Source: a phage
Sequence record: PV467749.1
Length of the DNA: 64,000 nt
Strand: one strand, 5' to 3'
Part shown: positions 1,328 to 62,134 of the stretch, in pieces
How positions within the stretch are numbered: the stretch's first letter is position 1
Layout: each line of letters starts with the position of its first letter
Translations under genes and position numbers: made by a program
The notes under the pieces: generated by a model
Databases searched by the model: none
What the model saw: only the letters and a program-made list of their open reading frames with translations
Told to the model about the DNA's origin: nothing

Positions 1328-1525
1328 TCAATCCTCACGATGCATATAGTACATAAACATCGCCAACCATATGCAGAATCCCACGCAACGAAGAAACAGA
1401 TCAACTGTTGGGTCTGTACCACCATTAACTTGGTAAACGATTACTGGGATTAAAGAAATAGCAATAGACACTGTACATAAGATGAATGCAACAAACACCT
1501 CAAACATAAACTTAATCGTTTCCAT
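1328..1525 (-). CDS. small hydrophobic (membrane) protein, 65 aa
   Basis: ORF track; two hydrophobic stretches (FVAFILCTVSIAISLIPVIV, GFCIWLAMFMYY). Confidence 0.4.
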   Translation of the reverse strand: METIKFMFEVFVAFILCTVSIAISLIPVIVYQVNGGTDPTVDLFLRCVGFCIWLAMFMYYMHRED

Positions 1526-2084
1526 TATTATCCTTCAATGTGTAGTGTAGTACATCTAAAAAGTTATACATTGATTCATTACGCATAACCTTGATTGTTA
1601 AATTACCACAACCCAACATACGTTTGAGGCGACGCTTCACAGCAGTTAAATCATGAGAACTATTTGTGTACAGACCATTAACCTGACCCGGAACAGTAGG
1701 AACATGAAGAATGTAATCATAATTCATTAGTAAGCGTTGATTATATTTCTTTAATGCTTGCTTGTATTCTGAAATATTTTCAAAGAATGTACAATAACGG
1801 TCGTAACGATTCATTTTATTCAAAATTGAAATACGAAAAGCGTTACCACTATTCCAATCATCTTCAGTTGGGTTTGGGTTGATATGTGCCATGTTAGCTG
1901 TACTATACCCACCACTTGTGAAAACTTCAGAATATCCATTCTCAAAAACATACAATGTTGCTTTGTGTCCTCGGAATTCTTTACGGTACTTTGACAGAAC
2001 TTGAATGTGATTACGCTTGGACTTGTACATTTCGTAACCTTCATAATCGCCACTGAATTCACAAATTTTATCAACACCAGCCAT
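1512..2084 (-). CDS. hypothetical protein (about 190 aa)
   Basis: ORF track 1512..2099; internal ATG (MAGVDKI...) has GAGGA SD 8 nt upstream, first ATG has none. Confidence 0.5.
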   Translation of the reverse strand: MAGVDKICEFSGDYEGYEMYKSKRNHIQVLSKYRKEFRGHKATLYVFENGYSEVFTSGGYSTANMAHINPNPTEDDWNSGNAFRISILNKMNRYDRYCTFFENISEYKQALKKYNQRLLMNYDYILHVPTVPGQVNGLYTNSSHDLTAVKRRLKRMLGCGNLTIKVMRNESMYNFLDVLHYTLKDNNGND

Positions 2085-2141
2085 TTCGTATATCCTCATT
2101 TGATTAATATAGGAGTATTATACATACTCCATTTTCATGTG

Positions 2142-2285
2142 TCAAGCTTTATAATACGGAAGACTTTTCACTAAAGATTCTGACGTATTATTTTTTACCC
2201 ATGTACTACCGTTGTCATTGGATACATATCCAGTACCATTAACAAACTTACGCATAATACCAGTAAAAATATTAGTATACACCAT
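2142..2285 (-). CDS. small hypothetical protein (about 47 aa)
   Basis: Hand translation: ATG preceded by AAAGGA SD; MVYTNIFTGIMRKFVNGTGYVSNDNGSTWVKNNTSESLVKSLPYYKA. Below ORF-track size cutoff. Confidence 0.3.
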   Translation of the reverse strand: MVYTNIFTGIMRKFVNGTGYVSNDNGSTWVKNNTSESLVKSLPYYKA

Positions 2286-2455
2286 TACTCAGTATCCTTT
2301 GGTTTAGAATGTAAACCATACTTTTCATCATAACGATCATAGGTAGTGCCATTAGTACTAGCTTTGATGCTTTCGGTGCGATTGATTGGTTCGATTTTGA
2401 CACCACGATAACCAATCTCTTCTTTAAATTGTTCCCATGATTCACGTAGACTCAT
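2285..2455 (-). CDS. small hypothetical protein (about 56 aa)
   Basis: Hand translation: ATG with AAGGGG SD; MSLRESWEQFKEEIGYRGVKIEPINRTESIK...; stop overlaps next start (TAATG). Confidence 0.3.
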   Translation of the reverse strand: MSLRESWEQFKEEIGYRGVKIEPINRTESIKASTNGTTYDRYDEKYGLHSKPKDTE

Positions 2456-2471
2456 TTTAGTCCCCTTTTTG

Positions 2472-2615
2472 TTATTTCATACACTCACGTAGGTCAATCT
2501 TTTCAACTGAACCACCGAGTACTAGATAGTGAAAATTAGAATCTTTGTTTGCCATATTCAAAAGATCTGCTTTCTGTTGAAGCGTAAAGCGTGAAGTACT
2601 GTTACGTACTGGCAT
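2472..2615 (-). CDS. small hypothetical protein (about 47 aa)
   Basis: Hand translation: ATG with AAGGAG SD 6 nt upstream; MPVRNSTSRFTLQQKADLLNMANKDSNFHYLVLGGSVEKIDLRECMK. Confidence 0.3.
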   Translation of the reverse strand: MPVRNSTSRFTLQQKADLLNMANKDSNFHYLVLGGSVEKIDLRECMK

Positions 2616-2617
2616 AG

Positions 2618-3061
2618 TTACTCCTTAAAGTAGATATCACGAATTTGCTTAATCATCTCTAACTCTTGAAGTCCTATCATACCAAAGTTTTCTTGAACTG
2701 TCAACTGTTGGAAGTACATTTCCTCTAAATTATTATAAGGAATATCCACTAATGATAAAGGTACTCGTTCTTCACTGAATGCCAGATCTTCAACTAAATG
2801 TTTTATAATCATAACAGTAAATGAATCTTTTTGTATATGAAATTTGTAAAACGTTTGGTTAGTAGTGAACATTGTGTTTGATGGATGGAAACCCATTTCG
2901 ACAAATACTGTATCTTTATCATTATGTGTGCAATATGTACATCTTGAATTCGCAAGAACTTTAGATTTTGGGTAATAAAAATCACCCAGCAACTTCTGTC
3001 GTTTCCAGTCCTCATATACAACTGGATGCTTAACCTTCTTCAATCGGTGCAGTACTGTCAT
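2618..3061 (-). CDS. small protein, EExFFQQST-motif paralog family member
   Basis: ORF track; contains EEMYFQQLTV about 35 aa from C-terminus; ATGA overlap with upstream gene. Confidence 0.5.
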   Translation of the reverse strand: MTVLHRLKKVKHPVVYEDWKRQKLLGDFYYPKSKVLANSRCTYCTHNDKDTVFVEMGFHPSNTMFTTNQTFYKFHIQKDSFTVMIIKHLVEDLAFSEERVPLSLVDIPYNNLEEMYFQQLTVQENFGMIGLQELEMIKQIRDIYFKE

Positions 3062-3441
3062 AGTTTTTTCCAGTCCAATGAATCGAAATCGATTTGTTCA
3101 GGGTTATCAACAGCGACAACTCGTGCATTATGAAGAGTTTCAAAGTAGCCGTTCCACGGTGTTCGTAATGGAACTGTCACATCACCAACTTTAACCAAGA
3201 ATGAATATGCTGGTGATATTGGGTCAAACCACTCTTTTTGTTTAGCATTTTCGACGATGGTTTCGTGTTCTTTTGTATAGCAATTATCTTGCTTCATATA
3301 AAACACCCAATGCTCTTTTAGGCACTGTAAAGCAGCAACTGCTTCCTCTTTAGAAGACCATTGAATATCAATTGTATTAAGAACGTCATAACAATTTTCA
3401 GTATCACCTGTAGTGTAATGTACTTCAATGCAGTATTTCAT
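3058..3441 (-). CDS. hypothetical protein (127 aa)
   Basis: ORF track; sits inside the paralog cluster but lacks the shared motif. Confidence 0.45.
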   Translation of the reverse strand: MKYCIEVHYTTGDTENCYDVLNTIDIQWSSKEEAVAALQCLKEHWVFYMKQDNCYTKEHETIVENAKQKEWFDPISPAYSFLVKVGDVTVPLRTPWNGYFETLHNARVVAVDNPEQIDFDSLDWKKL

Positions 3442-3896
3442 TATTCATCACCTTTTAGTAATTTACAAATTTCAATCATATGATAATAACATGTATTCCA
3501 AAATTGCCCATTAGTACTACCAACATCATGCACAGTACTTTGTTGGAAAACATATTCATCATTGAACAACTTTTTAATGTCATCAATGTAAAATTCTGGT
3601 TTTGAATCATTATTGTATTCAATACTCGTTTCACCATCTGGATCAAGTGAAATTGATGATATGTCGTGAATTCCTATCGGATTTGTTGGACAAATTCTCA
3701 ACGTAAGAGGATAGAAGTCTGGATCGGTTTCATATGTATATCCGATTATGTAATTACCATCTCCAGTGATTGAGTTATATTTAAATTTAGGTTCAAATAC
3801 ATTATGGACATTATAACCTAGTTTATTCATCTCGTTAAGATGTAATAATATTTTATGTAAAGTCCCTAAGACATGAATCAAATTATCAATTTTCAT
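3441..3896 (-). CDS. small protein, EExFFQQST-motif paralog family member
   Basis: ORF track; DEYVFQQSTVHD at residues about 113-124 of 151; ATGA overlap with upstream gene. Confidence 0.5.
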   Translation of the reverse strand: MKIDNLIHVLGTLHKILLHLNEMNKLGYNVHNVFEPKFKYNSITGDGNYIIGYTYETDPDFYPLTLRICPTNPIGIHDISSISLDPDGETSIEYNNDSKPEFYIDDIKKLFNDEYVFQQSTVHDVGSTNGQFWNTCYYHMIEICKLLKGDE

Positions 3897-4408
3897 TTAC
3901 GATCCTTTGAAAAGTTCAGTTTAAAAGATTTACCAAATTCCATTGTAGCTTTACCCAGATTGTTAATATTTTCTTTCAACATTTCTTGCATTTTTCTCAC
4001 ACTTTCATTCCAGGCTTCCTCTTCTTTACGGAGGATTGGTCGCAATCGTTCCTGAATATCGTTAAAACGTGTATTGAGTTCAACCAATGATTCATATGTG
4101 AAATCTTTCATGTCGATGATAGTACTTCGTTGAAAGAATTCTTCTTCGGATAAATTACTCAAAATGATTTTATCACTACCAATAGATAATGTCAATTCAT
4201 CATCTTGATTTTTTTTAATTACAATACGTACAGGTGATTTTATAGTAATGTGAACATCATGATTATTAAAAGTTTCAGTTTTGTTTGACGTTCTGAATTG
4301 TAGTCTTCCGGTTAGTGCGTGTACTGGCATTGGGTTCTTTTTACCAGTAATAACATCTTCCCACGAATCAAGGATATTATTAATAATTTTAACATAAGGA
4401 ACTGTCAT
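3893..4408 (-). CDS. small protein, EExFFQQST-motif paralog family member
   Basis: ORF track 3893..4435; internal ATG (MTVPYVK...) has AGGTG SD, first ATG has none; contains EEEFFQRSTIID. Confidence 0.5.
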   Translation of the reverse strand: MTVPYVKIINNILDSWEDVITGKKNPMPVHALTGRLQFRTSNKTETFNNHDVHITIKSPVRIVIKKNQDDELTLSIGSDKIILSNLSEEEFFQRSTIIDMKDFTYESLVELNTRFNDIQERLRPILRKEEEAWNESVRKMQEMLKENINNLGKATMEFGKSFKLNFSKDRK

Positions 4409-21976: not shown

Positions 21977-22603
21977 TTATTGGTAATATTTCGACAGTAC
22001 TGAATAGATTTTTAAACGTAGTTCATCCCAGTTGTTAACATAGTCATACCCATAACCATTTTTATACATATGATTGTGGGACGCTCGCATCATAACTGAT
22101 GGGATACCCAATTCCATTGATGTTTCAATATTATTGATATAATCATCAATCATCAGTTTTACGTCATATCGTTCTTTTAATTCTACTAGTGCTTCATGCT
22201 TAGATTCATTCATTTCAACAATGATGATTTCATCAAAACATGTCTCACCAAATACATGCATAAGATTAGTATTGCGAAGTACCTCGCTATAACCTTTCTT
22301 ACCACACTTAGTCAGTACTATGAATTTTTCCTTGTAAAAACGATCACGCAGTTCATGCATAATACTTACAGTGTTAGTTTCTACAGGTTTTAGTAATCCA
22401 AACATATACGAACGTTGATTGAATTCAGTAATGATCTCTTGAACTTTTTCTCGTGAAACACCAAACCATTCAGATAAATCGTATGCGAGTGGGTATGGTG
22501 TTGTTGGGTTGATATCATATTGGAGTTTTGCGTATTCTCCTAATGAACCAATGTGATCTAGTAGTACTTCATCACAGTCGAATACAATACAACGGTCTTT
22601 CAT
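21977..22603 (-). CDS. HAD-superfamily phosphatase-like protein (possible nucleotidase)
   Basis: N-terminal VFDCDEVLLD matches HAD motif I (DxDx[TV]); size 208 aa. Confidence 0.5.
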   Translation of the reverse strand: MKDRCIVFDCDEVLLDHIGSLGEYAKLQYDINPTTPYPLAYDLSEWFGVSREKVQEIITEFNQRSYMFGLLKPVETNTVSIMHELRDRFYKEKFIVLTKCGKKGYSEVLRNTNLMHVFGETCFDEIIIVEMNESKHEALVELKERYDVKLMIDDYINNIETSMELGIPSVMMRASHNHMYKNGYGYDYVNNWDELRLKIYSVLSKYYQ

Positions 22604-23556
22604 TACATGTTCCCCGAACAGATTAGGTCAATCTCACACAGTAATGCACTGAGATTCATTTCACGGTCAGACACGGTAGCTTGTTTAACAACAGCGTCAC
22701 GAATCTTAACCTTAATTTTCATTAGAGTAATTTCATCAGTACTGAACATTTCTGCATTACGATACAGATAAGAGAAGAATGCATCCATCTCATCATCAGG
22801 AATGTTTTGCACGATCTGCTCACGCATTTGACGAATGTTACCAGCTTTTAGTGCATCAATAATGGCAGTACGATACCCAGCAGAGTTCTCAATACTGTCT
22901 TCAAGCTTTACAAGTTTACCATCGACTACTGAACTTTGCAATACGTTTAGCGTTTTGCGGAAATCAGGATATGAAGCATTGATGTATTTTTGTACTTGTT
23001 CAATACTTTCATCAGTACTTAGATCTACTCCTTCTGCCAATAGTACGTTGTAGATGCGTGACATGAATTGTTCCATATCATGCTTCTCAATGGTGATGAC
23101 CTGAACACGAGAGATAATAGGTTTCTGAATCTTATGTGGTTCATTACTGGTAAGAATGAAACGAGCATTTTCATGGTAATCTTCCATGACACGTTTCAAG
23201 CTACCCTGTGCTTTGTGGTTCATTTGTTCCATTTCTTCCAGAACAAATACACGATAACGACCAAAACATGATAGTTTTGCTGCTGCATCAATTTTGTCAC
23301 GAACAGCATCGATACCTTCATCTGACATATTCAGTGTTGTTACATCACTAGGGTCAAGGTGTCCGTTAGCTTCCAGACCATTCAGTAGTACTTTGATTGC
23401 TGAAGTTTTTCCTGTCCCTGCTGGTCCAAAAAATCCAATATGTGGGATATCACCAGTGCGAATCCATTCTTCCATCTTCTGACGTAGGGCTTCGTTCTTA
23501 GATACATAATCTTCCATAGTTTGTGGGCGGTATTTTTCAGTCCATAATGTAGTCAT
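22603..23556 (-). CDS. 44: clamp-loader ATPase subunit (T4 gp44 / RFC small-subunit family)
   Basis: WTEKYRP box, Walker A GPAGTGKTS, VLEE Walker B; 317 aa. Confidence 0.8.
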   Translation of the reverse strand: MTTLWTEKYRPQTMEDYVSKNEALRQKMEEWIRTGDIPHIGFFGPAGTGKTSAIKVLLNGLEANGHLDPSDVTTLNMSDEGIDAVRDKIDAAAKLSCFGRYRVFVLEEMEQMNHKAQGSLKRVMEDYHENARFILTSNEPHKIQKPIISRVQVITIEKHDMEQFMSRIYNVLLAEGVDLSTDESIEQVQKYINASYPDFRKTLNVLQSSVVDGKLVKLEDSIENSAGYRTAIIDALKAGNIRQMREQIVQNIPDDEMDAFFSYLYRNAEMFSTDEITLMKIKVKIRDAVVKQATVSDREMNLSALLCEIDLICSGNM

Positions 23557-23908: not shown

Positions 23909-24235
23909 TTAACGACCAAATGTTTGAGCAGAGATGCGTGGATCATTGTCAGATACCAAACTTACTGCTGCTGGATAATCCACGAGATTCATTTTAATAC
24001 CATCAATCTCAATAGTTCTCGACCAACGACCGTGGTCAATTAGAATCCATTGTCCTTCTTTGATATCGGTAATGTCTTCACCAACAGAATATACTTTAGC
24101 CCAACGACAACGAATACCACGTATCTTACCATCATCACTTGTCAGTACAATACCACCTGCGGTTTTACGCTCACCATGTTCTAGTTCAGTTACAATAACT
24201 TTACCTTTACAAGCTGTCATTACTTTATTGGTCAT
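23909..24235 (-). CDS. GroES-like co-chaperonin (Cpn10; functional analog of T4 gp31)
   Basis: KTAGGIVLTS matches GroES KSAGGIVLT mobile-loop region; 108 aa. Confidence 0.6.
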   Translation of the reverse strand: MTNKVMTACKGKVIVTELEHGERKTAGGIVLTSDDGKIRGIRCRWAKVYSVGEDITDIKEGQWILIDHGRWSRTIEIDGIKMNLVDYPAAVSLVSDNDPRISAQTFGR

Positions 24236-24238
24236 GAA

Positions 24239-24583
24239 TTACTCCTGATCTTTAGTTTTTGCTCGGCGTGGAGCTTTCTTCTCTTCAGATACTTCAACTT
24301 CTGGTTCTTGTGGTTGAACTTCAAAGCTTTCATCATCCCATACTTCTTCAGTACTATATTCAGCACTGTGAAGTTGGTGTTCAGGAATGAAATCAGGAAT
24401 TTGCATTTCACGTTCTTTTTCTTGGATTAGTTCTTCACGGGTTTTAATGACCGTACCACCTGAACCAATCTTATCACCACGAGCATTTAGGTTTGCATTA
24501 CCTAGTGCTACTTGGTGCTGGTTTTGATACTTTAGCATATCCATATCAATGGTGGTTCCACGATAAGTTGTGTGTTTTGACAT
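24239..24583 (-). CDS. hypothetical protein (114 aa), acidic C-terminus
   Basis: ORF track. Confidence 0.45.
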   Translation of the reverse strand: MSKHTTYRGTTIDMDMLKYQNQHQVALGNANLNARGDKIGSGGTVIKTREELIQEKEREMQIPDFIPEHQLHSAEYSTEEVWDDESFEVQPQEPEVEVSEEKKAPRRAKTKDQE

Positions 24584-24646: not shown

Positions 24647-25165
24647 CTACCATTTCAAAAATTCATTTACATCTAGTTTATACTTCAAAGAATCAACCAT
24701 ATGCAAATCAATCAGGAACAAACAATACGAAGCCACTGAACTACCACGCCCAAGACCCCAAAAAATATTGTGCTCTTCCATATAATCAACTAACCAGATC
24801 ATACATCTTAAAAGCTTAGTCATGTTGTAATGTTCAAACAAATCAATCTCATACATTACACGTTCACGGGCTTCATCCGATGTACATTTCTGTAAAAAGT
24901 ACTCACGCAAGTTGATGTTATCGTACACTGGATCATAACGCCATAGCTCATGGTTTTTATCATGTTCTATTGTATAATCCAGCATACGCTGTTCTAAACC
25001 AAATTTTTTACAATTATCGTTAAATTTCAATCGTTCCGGTTCATCAATCTCCTGTAGCTGTAAGTACTGAATATCTGCACCACAGTTGATTGCATACACG
25101 ACTGCATTAAGGTTACATTTTACATCACCATTGGGACTTATAAATCTGTTTCCTTGTACTTTCAT
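24647..25165 (-). CDS. hypothetical protein with DnaE (Pol III alpha) PHP/palm-junction-like motif
   Basis: GLGRGSSVASYCLFLIDLHMVDSLKYKLDVNEFL resembles DnaE [34 protein letters not shown] (recalled from memory, by-eye alignment). Confidence 0.45.
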   Translation of the reverse strand: MKVQGNRFISPNGDVKCNLNAVVYAINCGADIQYLQLQEIDEPERLKFNDNCKKFGLEQRMLDYTIEHDKNHELWRYDPVYDNINLREYFLQKCTSDEARERVMYEIDLFEHYNMTKLLRCMIWLVDYMEEHNIFWGLGRGSSVASYCLFLIDLHMVDSLKYKLDVNEFLKW

Positions 25166-54967: not shown

Positions 54968-55945
54968 TCACCTGCGAATCAAAATTTTAGGAACTGACAG
55001 TAGTGGGTCATAGACTTTTCTTACTGCCGCATAGTCATAAGGAACTGGAACGATCTTAGGATGAATACAAACAACCAATCGCAACCACATGTAATTACCT
55101 TTAAAATTAAATGCTTGAATCCCATCTAACGCTTTAGGGAATCCATTTTCATCAATATCATTTTCGATATATTCTTTACCATCCAATTTAACAATAAACC
55201 ATTTATAGTTTTCGTTATCAGTTGGTGCGTTATTACACAAACATCCTTGTAATTGAATTCTACCAATGAATTTATCAAAGTACATTGCAATAGTACTAAG
55301 ACCATCAACTAATCCGTACTGCATTTGTGCAGGAAGGGGAGATGTTGCCATTATATCAAATTCACCAATAACGCCACGAGCGATTGGTTCATGATACAAG
55401 CGTTTGATGGTAGTCCATGCTGGGTTTTTATTAACAGATACTTCAATACTTGGCACAAACACAGGAGCAGCTTGGTCGGAAATGATCAATTCAGCAGAGG
55501 CTTCATAATCAAGACCAGTGTATAAGTACTGTGTAGGTTCAATCAAGGAACCATCCATTGTTACTTTAGTAATACTCCATCTATATTTTGAACCAGGACT
55601 AGTATCCTGAATTACACCAGCAGGAACAATACATCCATAATATACTTTTTTACTATTGCCTAATGTTTGTCTTGCTTGTCCACTTTCTGATAGCCATGAT
55701 GGTTTTTGTTTATCCAAAACTACATCGAATAATTTAGTATTGTTTCTAGCATCAAAAATCATGAATGTTAGATATTCGTTATCTTTTAGTAATGTATATT
55801 TTCCATCAGCGTTATGCACTGTGAATGATAAATTGTTATTTGCACCTCTGTATATTGTAAGTTTCTCATTGCTATATGGCATATTAAAATTGCCCAATGA
55901 TACTTCTTGGTTATAAGGGTACATAAACACGCCGTGATGAGCCAT
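54968..55945 (-). CDS. hypothetical protein (about 325 aa)
   Basis: ORF track 54968..56179; ATG at codon 79 (MAHHGVFMYPY...) has AAGGA SD; upstream extension overlaps a divergent plus-strand gene. Confidence 0.5.
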   Translation of the reverse strand: MAHHGVFMYPYNQEVSLGNFNMPYSNEKLTIYRGANNNLSFTVHNADGKYTLLKDNEYLTFMIFDARNNTKLFDVVLDKQKPSWLSESGQARQTLGNSKKVYYGCIVPAGVIQDTSPGSKYRWSITKVTMDGSLIEPTQYLYTGLDYEASAELIISDQAAPVFVPSIEVSVNKNPAWTTIKRLYHEPIARGVIGEFDIMATSPLPAQMQYGLVDGLSTIAMYFDKFIGRIQLQGCLCNNAPTDNENYKWFIVKLDGKEYIENDIDENGFPKALDGIQAFNFKGNYMWLRLVVCIHPKIVPVPYDYAAVRKVYDPLLSVPKILIRR

Positions 55946-55970
55946 AGTTTTTCCTTCCATAAATAATAGG

Positions 55971-55982
55971 TATAAATTTATA
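55971..55982. promoter_or_regulatory. palindromic TATAAATTTATA element in divergent intergenic region
   Basis: Perfect 12-bp palindrome giving TATAAATT (7/8 match to T4 late core TATAAATA) on both strands, between divergent genes 54968..55945 and 56003..56356. Confidence 0.3.
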
Positions 55983-56002
55983 CTAATATTTATGGAACTC
56001 AT

Positions 56003-56356
56003 ATGAATCAATATAATACTATTCCACCATTTATCACGGTAGTTCAGTGTGATGGTAAAACTTTCATTGGTATTATCAAGATAAAAAGTAAACAGTATAC
56101 TACTCTTTACTGCTTTGATGATATGGATGAACCAATGCAAGATGAATTGTTGGGTATAGCACATGATTGGTGGTGGCAAAGCAACAGGTCAATTCCAGTC
56201 TGTCTATTCTTCCAAGAAGAGATGGAGAAATTTGAACCTTACACACAGAGATTCGATACCCCTGCGGTGAATTTCGTTTGTGGTCCAGTAGTTTCTTTAA
56301 GTGATTTGCCACAAAAACGCATCAAGCGTCGTAATGTGGCTCTTAAGAAGAAGTAA
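56003..56356 (+). CDS. hypothetical protein (117 aa), plus-strand
   Basis: ORF track; ATG start; Trp-rich HDWWWQ and basic C-terminus; convergent with 56343..56981. Confidence 0.45.
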   Translation: MNQYNTIPPFITVVQCDGKTFIGIIKIKSKQYTTLYCFDDMDEPMQDELLGIAHDWWWQSNRSIPVCLFFQEEMEKFEPYTQRFDTPAVNFVCGPVVSLSDLPQKRIKRRNVALKKK

Positions 56357-56981
56357 GATGTTCAACTAAAGCGTTAAGTTGAACTACAATCATTAAGCTG
56401 TATGCATAAGCATGTGGCTTTTTGAAATATCGTAACTTATTTCCTGCTTGGTCTGTGCCAATAGTACTGTAATCCCATATAGTGGATTCAACTTCACTCC
56501 ATGTATTCATACTTTGGCACTGCCTTTTTCCAGGACGAATCATTGCAATAAACATTGCAAGTTCATCAATGGATTTAGGTTTCCACACATTTAATAATGT
56601 AACGTGTTTTTTAATCTGTGAAAGATGTTCAACTATTTCTGGTTCTAACAGAAGATCCCAATTAGGTTCCTGATTCATTAGTTCTTTTAAATGTGCTCTA
56701 TCACGAACATACTGGTAAGCCGATTGTGACAGGATATCTACCTTTTGATATCCCAAGCGTTCGGCTTCTTTATATTGTATGCTGGCTAAACCAGTGATAG
56801 GGTCAATTGGTATATTATCAAAATGAACACCACTGTTATGGGGGATTAAACCATCCTCCGTAATTTTTTCTGTACTTCGCACACAAGGAAGCTGTGCAAT
56901 CACTGACTTACTATCTTTAAAGTCAATGTCGATATCTGTTCGTGCTTTACGGTACGAATTAGAATTTGTCGAATCCTGCAT
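56343..56981 (-). CDS. hypothetical protein with DnaE fingers-domain-like motifs
   Basis: IDELAMFIAMIRPG and KKPHAYAYSLMIVVQL resemble DnaE ...FEDMIALVALFRPGP and GFNKSHSAAYALVSYQ (recalled, by-eye). Confidence 0.45.
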   Translation of the reverse strand: MQDSTNSNSYRKARTDIDIDFKDSKSVIAQLPCVRSTEKITEDGLIPHNSGVHFDNIPIDPITGLASIQYKEAERLGYQKVDILSQSAYQYVRDRAHLKELMNQEPNWDLLLEPEIVEHLSQIKKHVTLLNVWKPKSIDELAMFIAMIRPGKRQCQSMNTWSEVESTIWDYSTIGTDQAGNKLRYFKKPHAYAYSLMIVVQLNALVEHLTSS

Positions 56982-57288
56982 TTTTGATTTGCTCCTGCAA
57001 TTTGTTTACAGTGTTAGATAATTTGGTTACCTGATTTTCTAACATTGTACACTTTTGTTTGGTCTTTGACAACTCTTGACTTAGACCAAAGAATCTTTCC
57101 TCATGTCTTTCAACCATACTGATAATTTTTTCTACACGAACAGGATCGTGCACCTGAAAGGTTTTACCATCAAGTGTAATTTCAGTTATAGAACCCTGTC
57201 TAAGCAATGATAAAGATTTAGATTTATCTGCTTTAGGCACAGGTACATACCCTTCTGGTATTTTATTATATATACTTTTTCCATTCAT
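56959..57288 (-). CDS. hypothetical protein (109 aa), C-terminal coiled coil
   Basis: ORF track. Confidence 0.4.
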   Translation of the reverse strand: MNGKSIYNKIPEGYVPVPKADKSKSLSLLRQGSITEITLDGKTFQVHDPVRVEKIISMVERHEERFFGLSQELSKTKQKCTMLENQVTKLSNTVNKLQEQIKNAGFDKF

Positions 57289-57995
57289 AATCCAGCCTCA
57301 CGTAGCATACTTTTTATTTCATCACATTCCTTTTTGTACTTTATAGTTTTAACCTCAAAGTAACTAGGATCAATGTATTTAAGTATATACTCGATTTCAG
57401 AGTTAGAGAGATTCTTGAAAAACTTATTAGTACTTTCTTTTGGTGCTAACCAGATAATCCAAGGTGAAATCTTACCACTCTCAATCCATGCAATTGCACG
57501 GGCAGAACTCACATTGGAAAAAAACTTATTCCACTCCAAGTTCAGATTCTGACCCCATTCCACCATCGCAACAACACTACGGGAAACCGCAGCATTGGGA
57601 GATTCTGAACGAATACAATCTAATATCCATTCATCCTTTGCTTTATAAGTACTCCATTCCATAATAGGACGGTTTCTTACAATTAGACTTTTTACAAAAC
57701 CATCAATATCTAAAATATCACGGTTGTTCAAATAATAAATTGCAAAATCATAAAAATCACTAAAGTACTTTGATTTTATAAAAGCCATTAATGGTTCAAC
57801 TCCCTTCTTGAAAGGGAAATGGTTTAACTCCATGAATTGCATATAAATGCGAAAAGCCTCCCTCATGGGGCGGCTATCACGATCTTCGTAGCGGTCACGT
57901 TTAACACACTTATGTGTGTTAACTGTGTCTTCGCGTTTAAATTCTTTATCACAGAACTTACATTTGTATACGGGACTACTTGATTTCTTTGCCAT
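57285..57995 (-). CDS. hypothetical protein with N-terminal C2H2-like zinc finger
   Basis: YKCKFCDKEFKREDTVNTHKC. Confidence 0.5.
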   Translation of the reverse strand: MAKKSSSPVYKCKFCDKEFKREDTVNTHKCVKRDRYEDRDSRPMREAFRIYMQFMELNHFPFKKGVEPLMAFIKSKYFSDFYDFAIYYLNNRDILDIDGFVKSLIVRNRPIMEWSTYKAKDEWILDCIRSESPNAAVSRSVVAMVEWGQNLNLEWNKFFSNVSSARAIAWIESGKISPWIIWLAPKESTNKFFKNLSNSEIEYILKYIDPSYFEVKTIKYKKECDEIKSMLREAGL

Positions 57996-61315: not shown

Positions 61316-62134
61316 TTAATTAGTTCGAGTATTATATTCGTACTCAAATGTATATACTAAATCTTTATCACAGTTTGGGTTACTTGCATCAAGGATATCA
61401 CTGTTAGTAATCATCCATTCAATATAGTTCAATGGAACAGTTTCCATTGGTTCGCCTTTGTGTTTACCAAATGGCATGAATTTATAACGCATTGGTGTAT
61501 TACAGAATGTTACTATTTGTTCACCAATGTCACCATTAGGGTCAATATGACCACGTTCAATAGCAACTTCAATCAATTTGATTAGAACTTGGTAACACAT
61601 GAATACGTCATCTTTTGCTGCGTGAGCATTCACTGCACGATGTACGTCACGATAGCAACCAAATTTATACCACAAATAACTTAGAGTTAAGTTTTTGAAT
61701 TCAGTGTCTTCTGCAAACATCTTCTTAGCTAAACGAAGAGTACAAATCCATTTATCTTCATCGAGCAAGTACTGTGAAACTGAGTTACGATATTTATATT
61801 CGTTATCTACCATCATTCGGCGGTCAAATTGAACGTTGTGTCCAATAAAATAATCACGACAGCCCATGAGTGCGTCGATGTTTTCTAAGTCATCTTTATA
61901 ACCAATGCAGTTTGCTACATCTTCAGTACTGATAAAATGCACAGCACTTGCTTCTGGTGGTATATCTTTTAGTGGTTTATAACGCAAAGTGTAGTTATCA
62001 ATAGTATCAATATTCTCATGTGCACCGTGAGGATATGAAATACTAAATTCAATAATATCATCTTCACTTTCTACACCAGTCGTTTCGGTGTCTAGTACTG
62101 ATACGTTTGATAGAAACTCATCTAATTTTGTCAT
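61316..62134 (-). CDS. DnaQ-like DEDDh 3'-5' exonuclease with C-terminal FGKHKG-containing domain
   Basis: Exo I LDTETTG, Exo II HNVQFD, Exo III HRAVNAHAAKDD; C-terminal MPFGKHKGEPMETVPLNYIEW. Confidence 0.65.
   Translation of the reverse strand: MTKLDEFLSNVSVLDTETTGVESEDDIIEFSISYPHGAHENIDTIDNYTLRYKPLKDIPPEASAVHFISTEDVANCIGYKDDLENIDALMGCRDYFIGHNVQFDRRMMVDNEYKYRNSVSQYLLDEDKWICTLRLAKKMFAEDTEFKNLTLSYLWYKFGCYRDVHRAVNAHAAKDDVFMCYQVLIKLIEVAIERGHIDPNGDIGEQIVTFCNTPMRYKFMPFGKHKGEPMETVPLNYIEWMITNSDILDASNPNCDKDLVYTFEYEYNTRTN

Follow-up and report, generated by a model that had tools for sequence, protein, structure and literature searches.

Two small minus-strand genes in phage sequence record PV467749.1 encode proteins that resemble different parts of DnaE, the α subunit of bacterial DNA polymerase III (Pol III alpha). 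The stretch analyzed, referred to as the window, is 64,000 nucleotides (nt) long. The gene at 56343..56981 encodes a 212-residue C-terminal unit (C-unit), composed of the palm strands that carry the catalytic aspartates and a reduced "middle finger", and the gene at 24647..25165 encodes a 172-residue N-terminal unit (N-unit) ending at about residue 394 of Escherichia coli DnaE. We conclude that the two proteins are probably the two subunits of a minimal, two-piece DNA polymerase of the C family (DnaE type). The enzyme is the one that Iyer, Anantharaman, Krishnan, Burroughs and Aravind (2021, Viruses 13:63; PMC7824862) described for group 2.2 jumbo phages as a "split minimal Pol III alpha"; the finding, confirmed here, was already known computationally.

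Gene and fold of the C-unit

The C-unit open reading frame (ORF) starts with ATG, has an AGGAG 10 nt upstream of it, and overlaps by 23 nt the upstream gene at 56959..57288. It had been singled out for two DnaE fingers-like motifs, and the protein does contain both strings, KPKSIDELAMFIAMIRPG spanning residues 134-151 and YFKKPHAYAYSLMIVVQL spanning residues 185-202. The strings quoted as their parallels from E. coli DnaE are genuine, FEDMIALVALFRPGP ending at residue 642 and GFNKSHSAAYALVSYQ beginning at residue 755, and the spacing is indeed shortened, with 39 residues from R149 to K188 versus 119 from R639 to K758 in E. coli. Among the 576 six-frame ORFs of the window, the pair RP[GAS]...[KNR][KR]xH[AS]x[AGS]Y occurs only in the C-unit, and residue shuffles give 0.003 matches per window for the RP[GAS]...KxH pair; the match is not due to chance. 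A colinear five-motif pattern composed after the data had been seen (DxDxD, HxxG[VI], KxD[FIL]L, RPG, and KxH) matches only the C-unit and residues 401-764 of E. coli DnaE.

Profile searches give faint but colinear matches to DnaE. Pfam PF17657 (DNA_pol3_finger) aligns to residues 129-162 only, at 13.7 bits (E 0.04) against a gathering threshold of 22 bits. The C-unit family profile has a sole match in the PDB, Mycobacterium tuberculosis DnaE1 (E 0.65, in four colinear pieces), and a phmmer search of the PDB with the C-unit returns no match. With hhalign, the C-unit aligns to the single E. coli DnaE at E 0.03 and to an 81-sequence gammaproteobacterial DnaE profile at E 0.005 with a low reported probability. 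The profile pieces align colinearly to E. coli 401-420, 596-641, and 740-767, and the hhalign span covers E. coli 469-772. The profile comparison proposed in the original prediction thus yields consistent alignments but no match beyond E 0.005-0.03 by hhalign, and a sub-threshold one in Pfam. Within PHROGs, the C-unit belongs to phrog_11778, "DNA polymerase" (E 2e-106).

Structure comparison is decisive for the homology of the C-unit, where the sequence profiles are weak. An AlphaFold2 model built with 84 homologues has a predicted local distance difference test (pLDDT) score of 93.5, and the nine best Foldseek matches of this model in the PDB are all Pol III alpha. Its palm and fingers fold superimposes on solved DnaE and PolC structures; in the model, approximately 90% of the C-unit is unambiguously superimposable on the C-family polymerase core, at an identity to DnaE of only 15-19% in the structural alignments. 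In the fingers of C-family polymerases, the counterparts of the motifs first noticed are the RPG loop and the helix bearing the K-x-H "steric gate". A fingers-like label is nevertheless incomplete, because the first 85 residues make up the catalytic portion of the palm, including all three metal-binding aspartates.

Active-site residues of the C-unit

The C-unit was mapped onto E. coli DnaE through alignments of 37, 84, and then 223 family members, the last reaching down to 26% identity. All coordinates below are on the minus strand. The strand D16-I-D18-I-D20 (56922..56936) corresponds to the metal-binding DxD strand D401-F-D403-V-D405, its aspartates being kept in 221, 221, and 218 of the 223 members; the profile pieces place it against E. 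coli 401-420 and M. tuberculosis DnaE1 413-424. H48-N-S-G51 (56829..56840; H48 in 220/223, G51 in 219/223) aligns with H511-A-G-G, matched by hhalign to KHAGGV. K80-V-D82 (56736..56744) is the equivalent of K553-F-D555, with K80 in 222 members and D82 in all 223, and hhalign sets GYQKVDIL against GLVKFDFL.

Further along the chain, R149-P150-G151-K152 (56526..56537) corresponds to the R639-P640-G641 loop. R149 is retained in 219/223 and P150 in 221/223, position 151 is G, A, or S across the family, and the loop is followed by an extra lysine, K152 (210/223). The segment Y185-F-K-K-P-H190-A-Y-A-Y194 (56400..56429) matches Y754-G-F-N-K758-S-H760-S-A-A-Y, with F186 in 195, K187 in 209, and H190 in 216 members. 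Each of D16, D18, D20, H48, K80, D82, R149, P150, K187, and H190 is therefore kept in 209-223 of the 223 sequences.

The E. coli counterparts of these residues line the active site. D401, D403, and D555 bind metals, K553 forms a salt bridge to the γ-phosphate of the deoxynucleoside triphosphate (dNTP), H511 contacts primer position −2, R639, P640, and G641 touch the templating nucleotide, and a helix-loop-helix with Y754, F756, N757, and H760 covers the dNTP in cryo-electron microscopy structures of E. coli Pol III (bioRxiv 10.64898/2026.06.29.735100). H760, which is invariant in Pol III alpha, excludes ribonucleotides as a steric gate (PMC8485763); by alignment, H190 is the counterpart of this histidine and would confer dNTP selectivity. 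Three metal-binding aspartates are absolutely conserved in the C family, and at the D405 position DnaE groups have Asp where PolC has Asn (PMC3919608). Judged from the aligned sequences, the third aspartate, D20, is typical of DnaE and not of PolC, as illustrated by the PolC of Firmicutes (Geobacillus kaustophilus, 3f2b), which has Asn at the third position of its DxDxN strand where the phage protein has Asp.

The N-unit and the junction between the halves

The second DnaE-like piece, at 24647..25165, had been anticipated in the original prediction and is recognizable by sequence. It scores above the Pfam cut-off for PF07733, the Pol III alpha palm (E 5.8e-9, profile positions 15-95), falls into phrog_11127, and aligns to the DnaE profile in hhalign with 93.6% probability (E 2e-7); the plus strand across the gene contains 9 stop codons. 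The N-unit consists of a phage-specific N-terminal region of ~95 residues followed by two helices and a GS nucleotide-binding motif, and no PHP domain is matched in it by Pfam. The GS motif, G139-R140-G141-S142-S143 (24737..24751, minus strand), corresponds to E. coli G361-R362-G363-S364 and is invariant in 73 N-units. Near the end of the chain, the family has a near-invariant lysine three residues after E168. In E. coli Pol III, the GS motif grips the dNTP triphosphate (bioRxiv 10.64898/2026.06.29.735100). The mapped phage residues of both halves are those lying within 4 Å of dGTP or the templating base in the E. coli enzyme.

This retention of active-site residues bears on whether the two proteins might be catalytically dead remnants, kept as structural or regulatory subunits such as a scaffold or a DNA-binding factor in a T4-like replisome. 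The reduction to 384 residues in total from the 1160 of E. coli DnaE would fit such a role, as would the lack of a demonstrated activity and the labels "putative membrane protein" or "hypothetical protein" that the C-unit carries in several records. Inactivated enzymes normally lose their catalytic residues, however, and here the three aspartates, the GS loop, the γ-phosphate lysine, and the steric-gate histidine are kept in 97-100% of 223 diverse members. Between the window and phage 121Q, moreover, the C-unit shares 87.5% nucleotide and 95% protein identity, with a ratio of nonsynonymous to synonymous substitution rates (dN/dS) of 0.044, and the ORF is thus under strong purifying selection. 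A dead remnant is highly improbable on these grounds.

At the junction, the N-unit end ...LDVNEFLKW aligns with E. coli ...LLFERFLNP (386-394), and the C-unit DxD, from residue 16, corresponds to E. coli 401; the halves are therefore exactly complementary and abut without overlap. Within the nucleotidyltransferase fold, the chain is interrupted past the helix that follows the GS motif and before the DxD strand; because this point lies inside the catalytic fold, neither half alone has a complete active site.

A naturally split dnaE whose genes lie far apart is otherwise known only from Synechocystis, whose split-intein DnaE was reportedly described by Wu, Hu and Liu in 1998; on that model, the phage halves could be joined covalently after translation by a split intein. 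Cyanobacterial DnaE is reportedly split late in the fingers and joined by such an intein; it resembles the phage system in drawing a C-family catalytic subunit from two far-apart genes, but the phage break lies inside the palm. The N-unit stops within 1-2 residues of where the DnaE homology ends (...EFLKW*), so that an intein N-half of ~100 residues could not be accommodated, and only 15 residues precede the C-unit DxD, with many homologues beginning MDIDIDF. The linkers of the naturally fused forms described below, ~10 ordinary residues, likewise contain no trace of an intein. Covalent joining by this route has virtually no probability and is ruled out, as no intein halves are present at the junction.

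The boundaries also bear on the idea that the ORFs are decaying pseudogene pieces of a host-derived full-length dnaE. Their small sizes and separate loci would be expected of such debris, and the 172-residue protein was noted earlier as a "truncated" Pol III alpha in the CBB genome paper (PMC5259590). Decay is, however, incompatible with lengths fixed across hundreds of phages of Gamma- and Alphaproteobacteria (~172 residues for the N-unit and 190-216 for the C-unit), with the strong purifying selection, and with precisely complementary boundaries. Nor does the window hold other DnaE-like debris: no further pieces (PHP, thumb, or OB) are found in it, and tblastn with full-length E. coli DnaE finds nothing there. 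We consider pseudogene fragments extremely unlikely, and the conservation and dN/dS refute them. The description of the two ORFs as DnaE-derived fragments holds insofar as both are DnaE-like, but they are not decayed; they represent the conserved halves of one split enzyme.

Co-occurrence and natural fusions

The two halves occur together across phages. Searched with tblastn, 50,697 phage records yield 96 with the C-unit and 93 with the N-unit, the two genes co-occurring in approximately 95 jumbo-phage genomes. The C-unit/N-unit counts by genus are nearly identical, at 34/34 for Escherichia, 11/11 for Pseudomonas, 11/10 for Klebsiella, 8/8 each for Salmonella and Erwinia, and 4/4 each for Xanthomonas and Yersinia phages; nearly all of the records listed are genomes of 280-490 kilobases (kb). 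IMG/VR adds at least 585 C-unit and at least 590 N-unit loci. In Escherichia phage CMSTMSU (MH494197.1, ~229549..229962), the N-unit matches in two places with only 81% coverage and 74% identity; CMSTMSU is in other respects closely related, and its N-unit gene may be disrupted, rearranged, or affected by a sequencing artefact.

The genes lie far apart, 31 kb in the window and 14-224 kb in the Stenotrophomonas phages, Pseudomonas phage PA5oct, Agrobacterium phage Atu_ph07, and Sinorhizobium phages. Apart from one fused ORF, none of 160 IMG/VR loci has both halves within flanks of up to 10 kb. A profile search of 1.84 billion representative proteins recovers 534 relatives, nearly all standalone proteins of 180-215 residues or shorter fragments.

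Two single-chain fusions are present among the matches listed, both metagenomic and both with the halves in DnaE order. P0296 (375 residues; 1066-2193 of the 2.4-kb contig L084) and P0365 (336 residues) are joined by linkers of ~10 ordinary residues, ...EFIKDNKEGIYNIADFDID... and ...EFIKDTRPDYDIELCD..., respectively. The PF07733 palm domain spans the junction in P0296, and P0365 matches both PHROG families. The P0365 gene overlaps by 4 nt the end of a gene for a 552-residue protein with a Pfam "Replicase" domain (PF03090, E 2.5e-13) and a helix-turn-helix, the pair occupying 1516-4181 of an 8-kb contig (L166, JGI 3300080032); an endolysin-like peptidoglycan-binding gene lies nearby. This single contig is suggestive of a module of Rep and mini-polymerase belonging to a small element. 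Searching with P0365 for more fusions yields none: it is a singleton in a database of 5.8 billion proteins, and its other matches are all split C-units.

Reduction of the polymerase core

Compared with E. coli DnaE, the phage enzyme lacks most of the elements surrounding the active site. Exact E. coli domain boundaries are as reportedly given by Lamers et al. in 2006. Approximately 12 residues stand in place of E. coli 421-509, eliminating the thumb, and D20 and H48 are separated by ~27 residues compared with 105 between D405 and H511. Most of the index finger (E. coli ~641-756, with R709, R710, K714, and K715) is gone as well, with ~13 residues in place of 643-739 and only the last helix before K-x-H remaining. 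The C-unit ends 22 residues past H190, near E. coli ~785, and has no ring or little fingers, clamp-binding/(HhH)2 region, OB domain, or tau-binding domain. The split enzyme is likewise described as lacking the other Pol III alpha domains by Iyer et al. (PMC7824862). In E. coli, the index finger rotates onto the dNTP and supplies R709, K714, and K715 (bioRxiv 10.64898/2026.06.29.735100). In the finger naming of that preprint, essentially only the "middle finger" survives; the invariant K152 may perhaps offset the lost basic residues.

So extensive a reduction raises the alternative that the halves form an active nucleotidyltransferase of Pol-β fold that does not copy a template, and instead performs untemplated addition, repair or tailing, or makes a nucleotide product in phage-host conflict. 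The Pol-β-like fold serves many non-polymerase nucleotidyltransferases. Most DNA-holding surfaces are gone (thumb; index, ring, and little fingers; (HhH)2; OB), the dNTP-binding residues R709, K714, K715, and R390 of E. coli are absent or changed, and the phage already has a complete family-B polymerase (PolB) with an exonuclease domain. Against this stand near-invariant residues that matter in E. coli only for templated synthesis, namely the RPG loop, the primer-contacting histidine, and the steric-gate histidine, as well as an aromatic residue preceding F186, at the position where E. coli Y754 stacks on the incoming base. Both genes are located in replication or recombination modules and not in defence islands, the C-unit gene between UvsW and primase/DnaB and the N-unit gene near the clamp loader, and one fusion is translationally coupled to a plasmid-type Rep protein. 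An untemplated nucleotidyltransferase is, taken together, unlikely.

Phage background and neighboring genes

The window derives from a Rak2-like, T4-related jumbo myovirus lineage. The 4 kb around the C-unit ORF are 99.5-99.9% identical to eight Escherichia jumbo phages of 354-384 kb, including EC.P1, fEgEco12, WPEC5, Ecwhy_1, BF17, and Turkey3, and ~82.5% identical to the 121Q/PBECO4 (Asteriusvirus) group; these eight relatives and the 121Q/PBECO4 group are all Rak2-like, T4-related jumbo myoviruses. The window is 99.9% identical to a 356-kb coliphage. It corresponds approximately to g372-g470 of fEgEco12, a region encoding topoisomerase II, clamp loader, primase, DnaB-type helicase, UvsW-like helicase, DnaQ-type exonuclease, UvsY, RecA/UvsX, ribonucleotide reductase, IF3, a KTSC protein, and TelA; gp32 is present as well, alongside the clamp loader, primase, DnaB, and UvsW/X/Y. 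The family-B polymerase expected for such a phage is found in fEgEco12 (99.8% identical to the window) as a 1001-residue PolB (PF03104 and PF00136), ~10 kb past the right end of the window.

Downstream of the C-unit, on the opposite strand, lies the gene at 56003..56356, which encodes a 117-residue protein. The original prediction noted this convergent gene, and it is real: phrog_11637 covers its entire length (E 6e-55), the 121Q RefSeq record lists it as gene 17, and it overlaps the C-unit at their 3' ends by 14 nt. Of 81 metagenomic viral loci, 79 carry it on the strand opposite the C-unit, in most cases as the next gene downstream, and it is among the neighbors most tightly linked to the C-unit. 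The protein contains a WWWxSNR motif, with invariant W56-W57-W58 and N61-R62, and a basic KR-x-KR C-terminal tail, and neither Pfam nor the PDB gives a match to it, nor is any PHROG match informative. The protein might act as a partner that binds DNA, or the arrangement might simply be conserved synteny. Annotations around this gene differ: a 403-residue TTG-initiated ORF at 54968..56179 (minus strand) and the 1197-nt coding sequence of fEgEco12 run into the plus-strand gene, while Turkey3 and 121Q annotate a shorter gene from the ATG at 55945 (MAHHGVF...) that avoids the overlap, and fEgEco12 calls a 70-residue minus-strand ORF at 56100..56312 instead of the PHROGs-supported plus-strand gene.

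On the other side, a 236-residue zinc-finger protein is encoded at 57285..57995 on the minus strand (phrog_11058, E 6e-101; weak C2H2 matches). It has an N-terminal C-x2-C...H-x4-C zinc finger and is found upstream of the C-unit on the same strand in 73 of the 81 loci. The intervening 109-residue coiled-coil protein (56959..57288, minus strand; phrog_14909, "virion structural protein") is present only in close Rak2-like relatives (2/81 loci), and its gene, lying between those of the zinc-finger protein and the C-unit, is thus an insertion specific to this lineage. Other C-unit neighbors in these loci are primase (62), a 165-residue protein (54), DnaB (53), and UvsW (52), counts limited by how far the contigs extend, and one record annotates a 281-residue upstream protein as the clamp-loader small subunit. 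The syntenic block is kept even at ~40% C-unit protein identity.

The N-unit has conserved neighbors of its own. A 114-residue gene (24239..24583, minus strand; phrog_14844, E 2e-62) follows it on the same strand, usually immediately, in 77 of 80 loci. A gp31/GroES-like co-chaperonin (23909..24235, minus strand; Cpn10 E 1e-4, phrog_931) comes after the N-unit in 75 of these loci, and 53 of the 80 then have a clamp-loader ATPase (22603..23556).

A DnaQ/RNase T-type 3'-5' exonuclease (61316..62134, minus strand; PF00929, E 5e-14), with a QSregVF_b-like C-terminal stretch, lies 4.3 kb upstream of the C-unit and is a standalone candidate proofreader with homologues in only 2 of 81 divergent loci. 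Another core gene of fEgEco12 that seems to be split is that of the large terminase subunit, annotated outside the window as three consecutive ORFs of 229, 113, and 445 residues (g367-g369; L001:31392-33694).

Proposed mechanism

We propose that the N-unit provides the first part of a Pol-β-like nucleotidyltransferase fold, comprising two helices, strand 1, and the GRGSS loop that would grip the triphosphate. The C-unit would contribute the DxD strand, the hairpin with the primer-contacting histidine, and the strand with the lysine and the third aspartate, together with a pared-down "middle finger" in which the RPG loop would accommodate the templating base and the Lys-Lys-x-His helix would act as a deoxyribose steric gate. 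The halves would assemble into a heterodimer with one active site, adding dNTPs to a primer on a template in a Mg2+-dependent manner; assembly would be non-covalent, because intein halves are lacking. Since the thumb, closing index finger, clamp binding, and proofreading are absent, synthesis would be distributive and probably less accurate. Beside the family-B replicase, the enzyme would most likely take on a dedicated task, for instance extending primers, filling gaps, or synthesizing DNA during repair or recombination.

Several points weigh against a template-copying polymerase. The sequence-only matches of the C-unit fall below the usual thresholds and, although colinear and consistent, are weak evidence, not significant by themselves. 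The dNTP-closing index finger with its R709, K714, and K715 and the duplex-holding thumb are absent. At the position of E. coli R390, the N-unit has an invariant glutamate, E168 (24662..24664, minus strand); R390 contacts the dNTP, and R390A is reported to be 27-fold less catalytically efficient (bioRxiv 10.64898/2026.06.29.735100). A literature search finds no biochemical assay or experimental follow-up for any member of the family. Finally, the conserved synteny may only mirror the conserved core gene order of the clade; because that order is conserved clade-wide, the proximity of gp31/GroES-like, clamp-loader, primase, and helicase genes is not specific functional evidence. A minimal two-piece polymerase nonetheless remains the probable explanation.

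A more elaborate arrangement would make the mini Pol III the core of a larger, hitherto unrecognized multi-subunit polymerase, in which the 117-, 236-, and 114-residue proteins would supply the missing thumb, clamp-binding, and DNA-holding functions in trans, the core perhaps also being an autonomous replicase of small elements. These three genes are tied to the halves by synteny only, and we consider the arrangement quite doubtful. The Rep-coupled fusion and an autonomous replicase would fit the proposal of Iyer et al. that the enzyme is an ancestral-like form and not a reduced copy.

Relation to known polymerases

The phage system shares with the group 2.2 split Pol III the division into two standalone units, an N-terminal one that binds NTP and a C-terminal one that binds Mg2+ and template, encoded by distant genes. 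Like the group 2.2 phages, it belongs to a T4-related jumbo phage with PolB, clamp, clamp loader, gp32, UvsX/Y/W, and a DnaG-type primase, and the window also has the group 2.2 hallmarks IF3, KTSC protein, and TelA. Iyer et al. proposed cooperation with PolB or a role in repair, and regarded the enzyme as a model of an ancestral replicase form (PMC7824862). Both ORFs already carry the name "DNA polymerase" or "DNA polymerase III alpha" in RefSeq and in several GenBank records. The additions made here are a residue-level map, the finding that only the middle finger is retained, two fused forms (one of them Rep-linked), quantified co-occurrence and selection, and the conserved neighbors.

The phage enzyme differs from bacterial DnaE (E. 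coli; Thermus aquaticus, 2hpi; M. tuberculosis DnaE1, 7pu7) in comprising 384 residues in two chains, whereas DnaE has ~1160 in one, in lacking the PHP domain (E. coli 1-270), which nearly all cellular members possess, and in carrying Glu for R390. Three elements of PolC are missing from the phage enzyme: the inserted exonuclease for proofreading, the thumb, and the complete fingers. Group 3.2 jumbo phages (e.g. Bacillus phage G) encode a full-length, host-like Pol III alpha with PHP as sole replicase (PMC7824862); the present enzyme is likewise a phage-encoded C-family member but is minimal, split, and accompanied by PolB.

If active, the enzyme would be the smallest known C-family polymerase, ~384 residues in two chains and one third of DnaE, and the only one known whose catalytic fold is put together from the products of two genes with no intein involved. 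The minimum for Pol III-type catalysis would thereby be set at a palm and one finger, with no thumb, PHP, or clamp-binding domain, and this family of antibiotic targets could be studied in a simple system. The enzyme also has a bearing on whether a core of this kind gave rise to the bacterial replicase, and it prompts one to ask why a bacterial-type polymerase is retained next to a complete family-B replicase in hundreds of T4-related jumbo phages.

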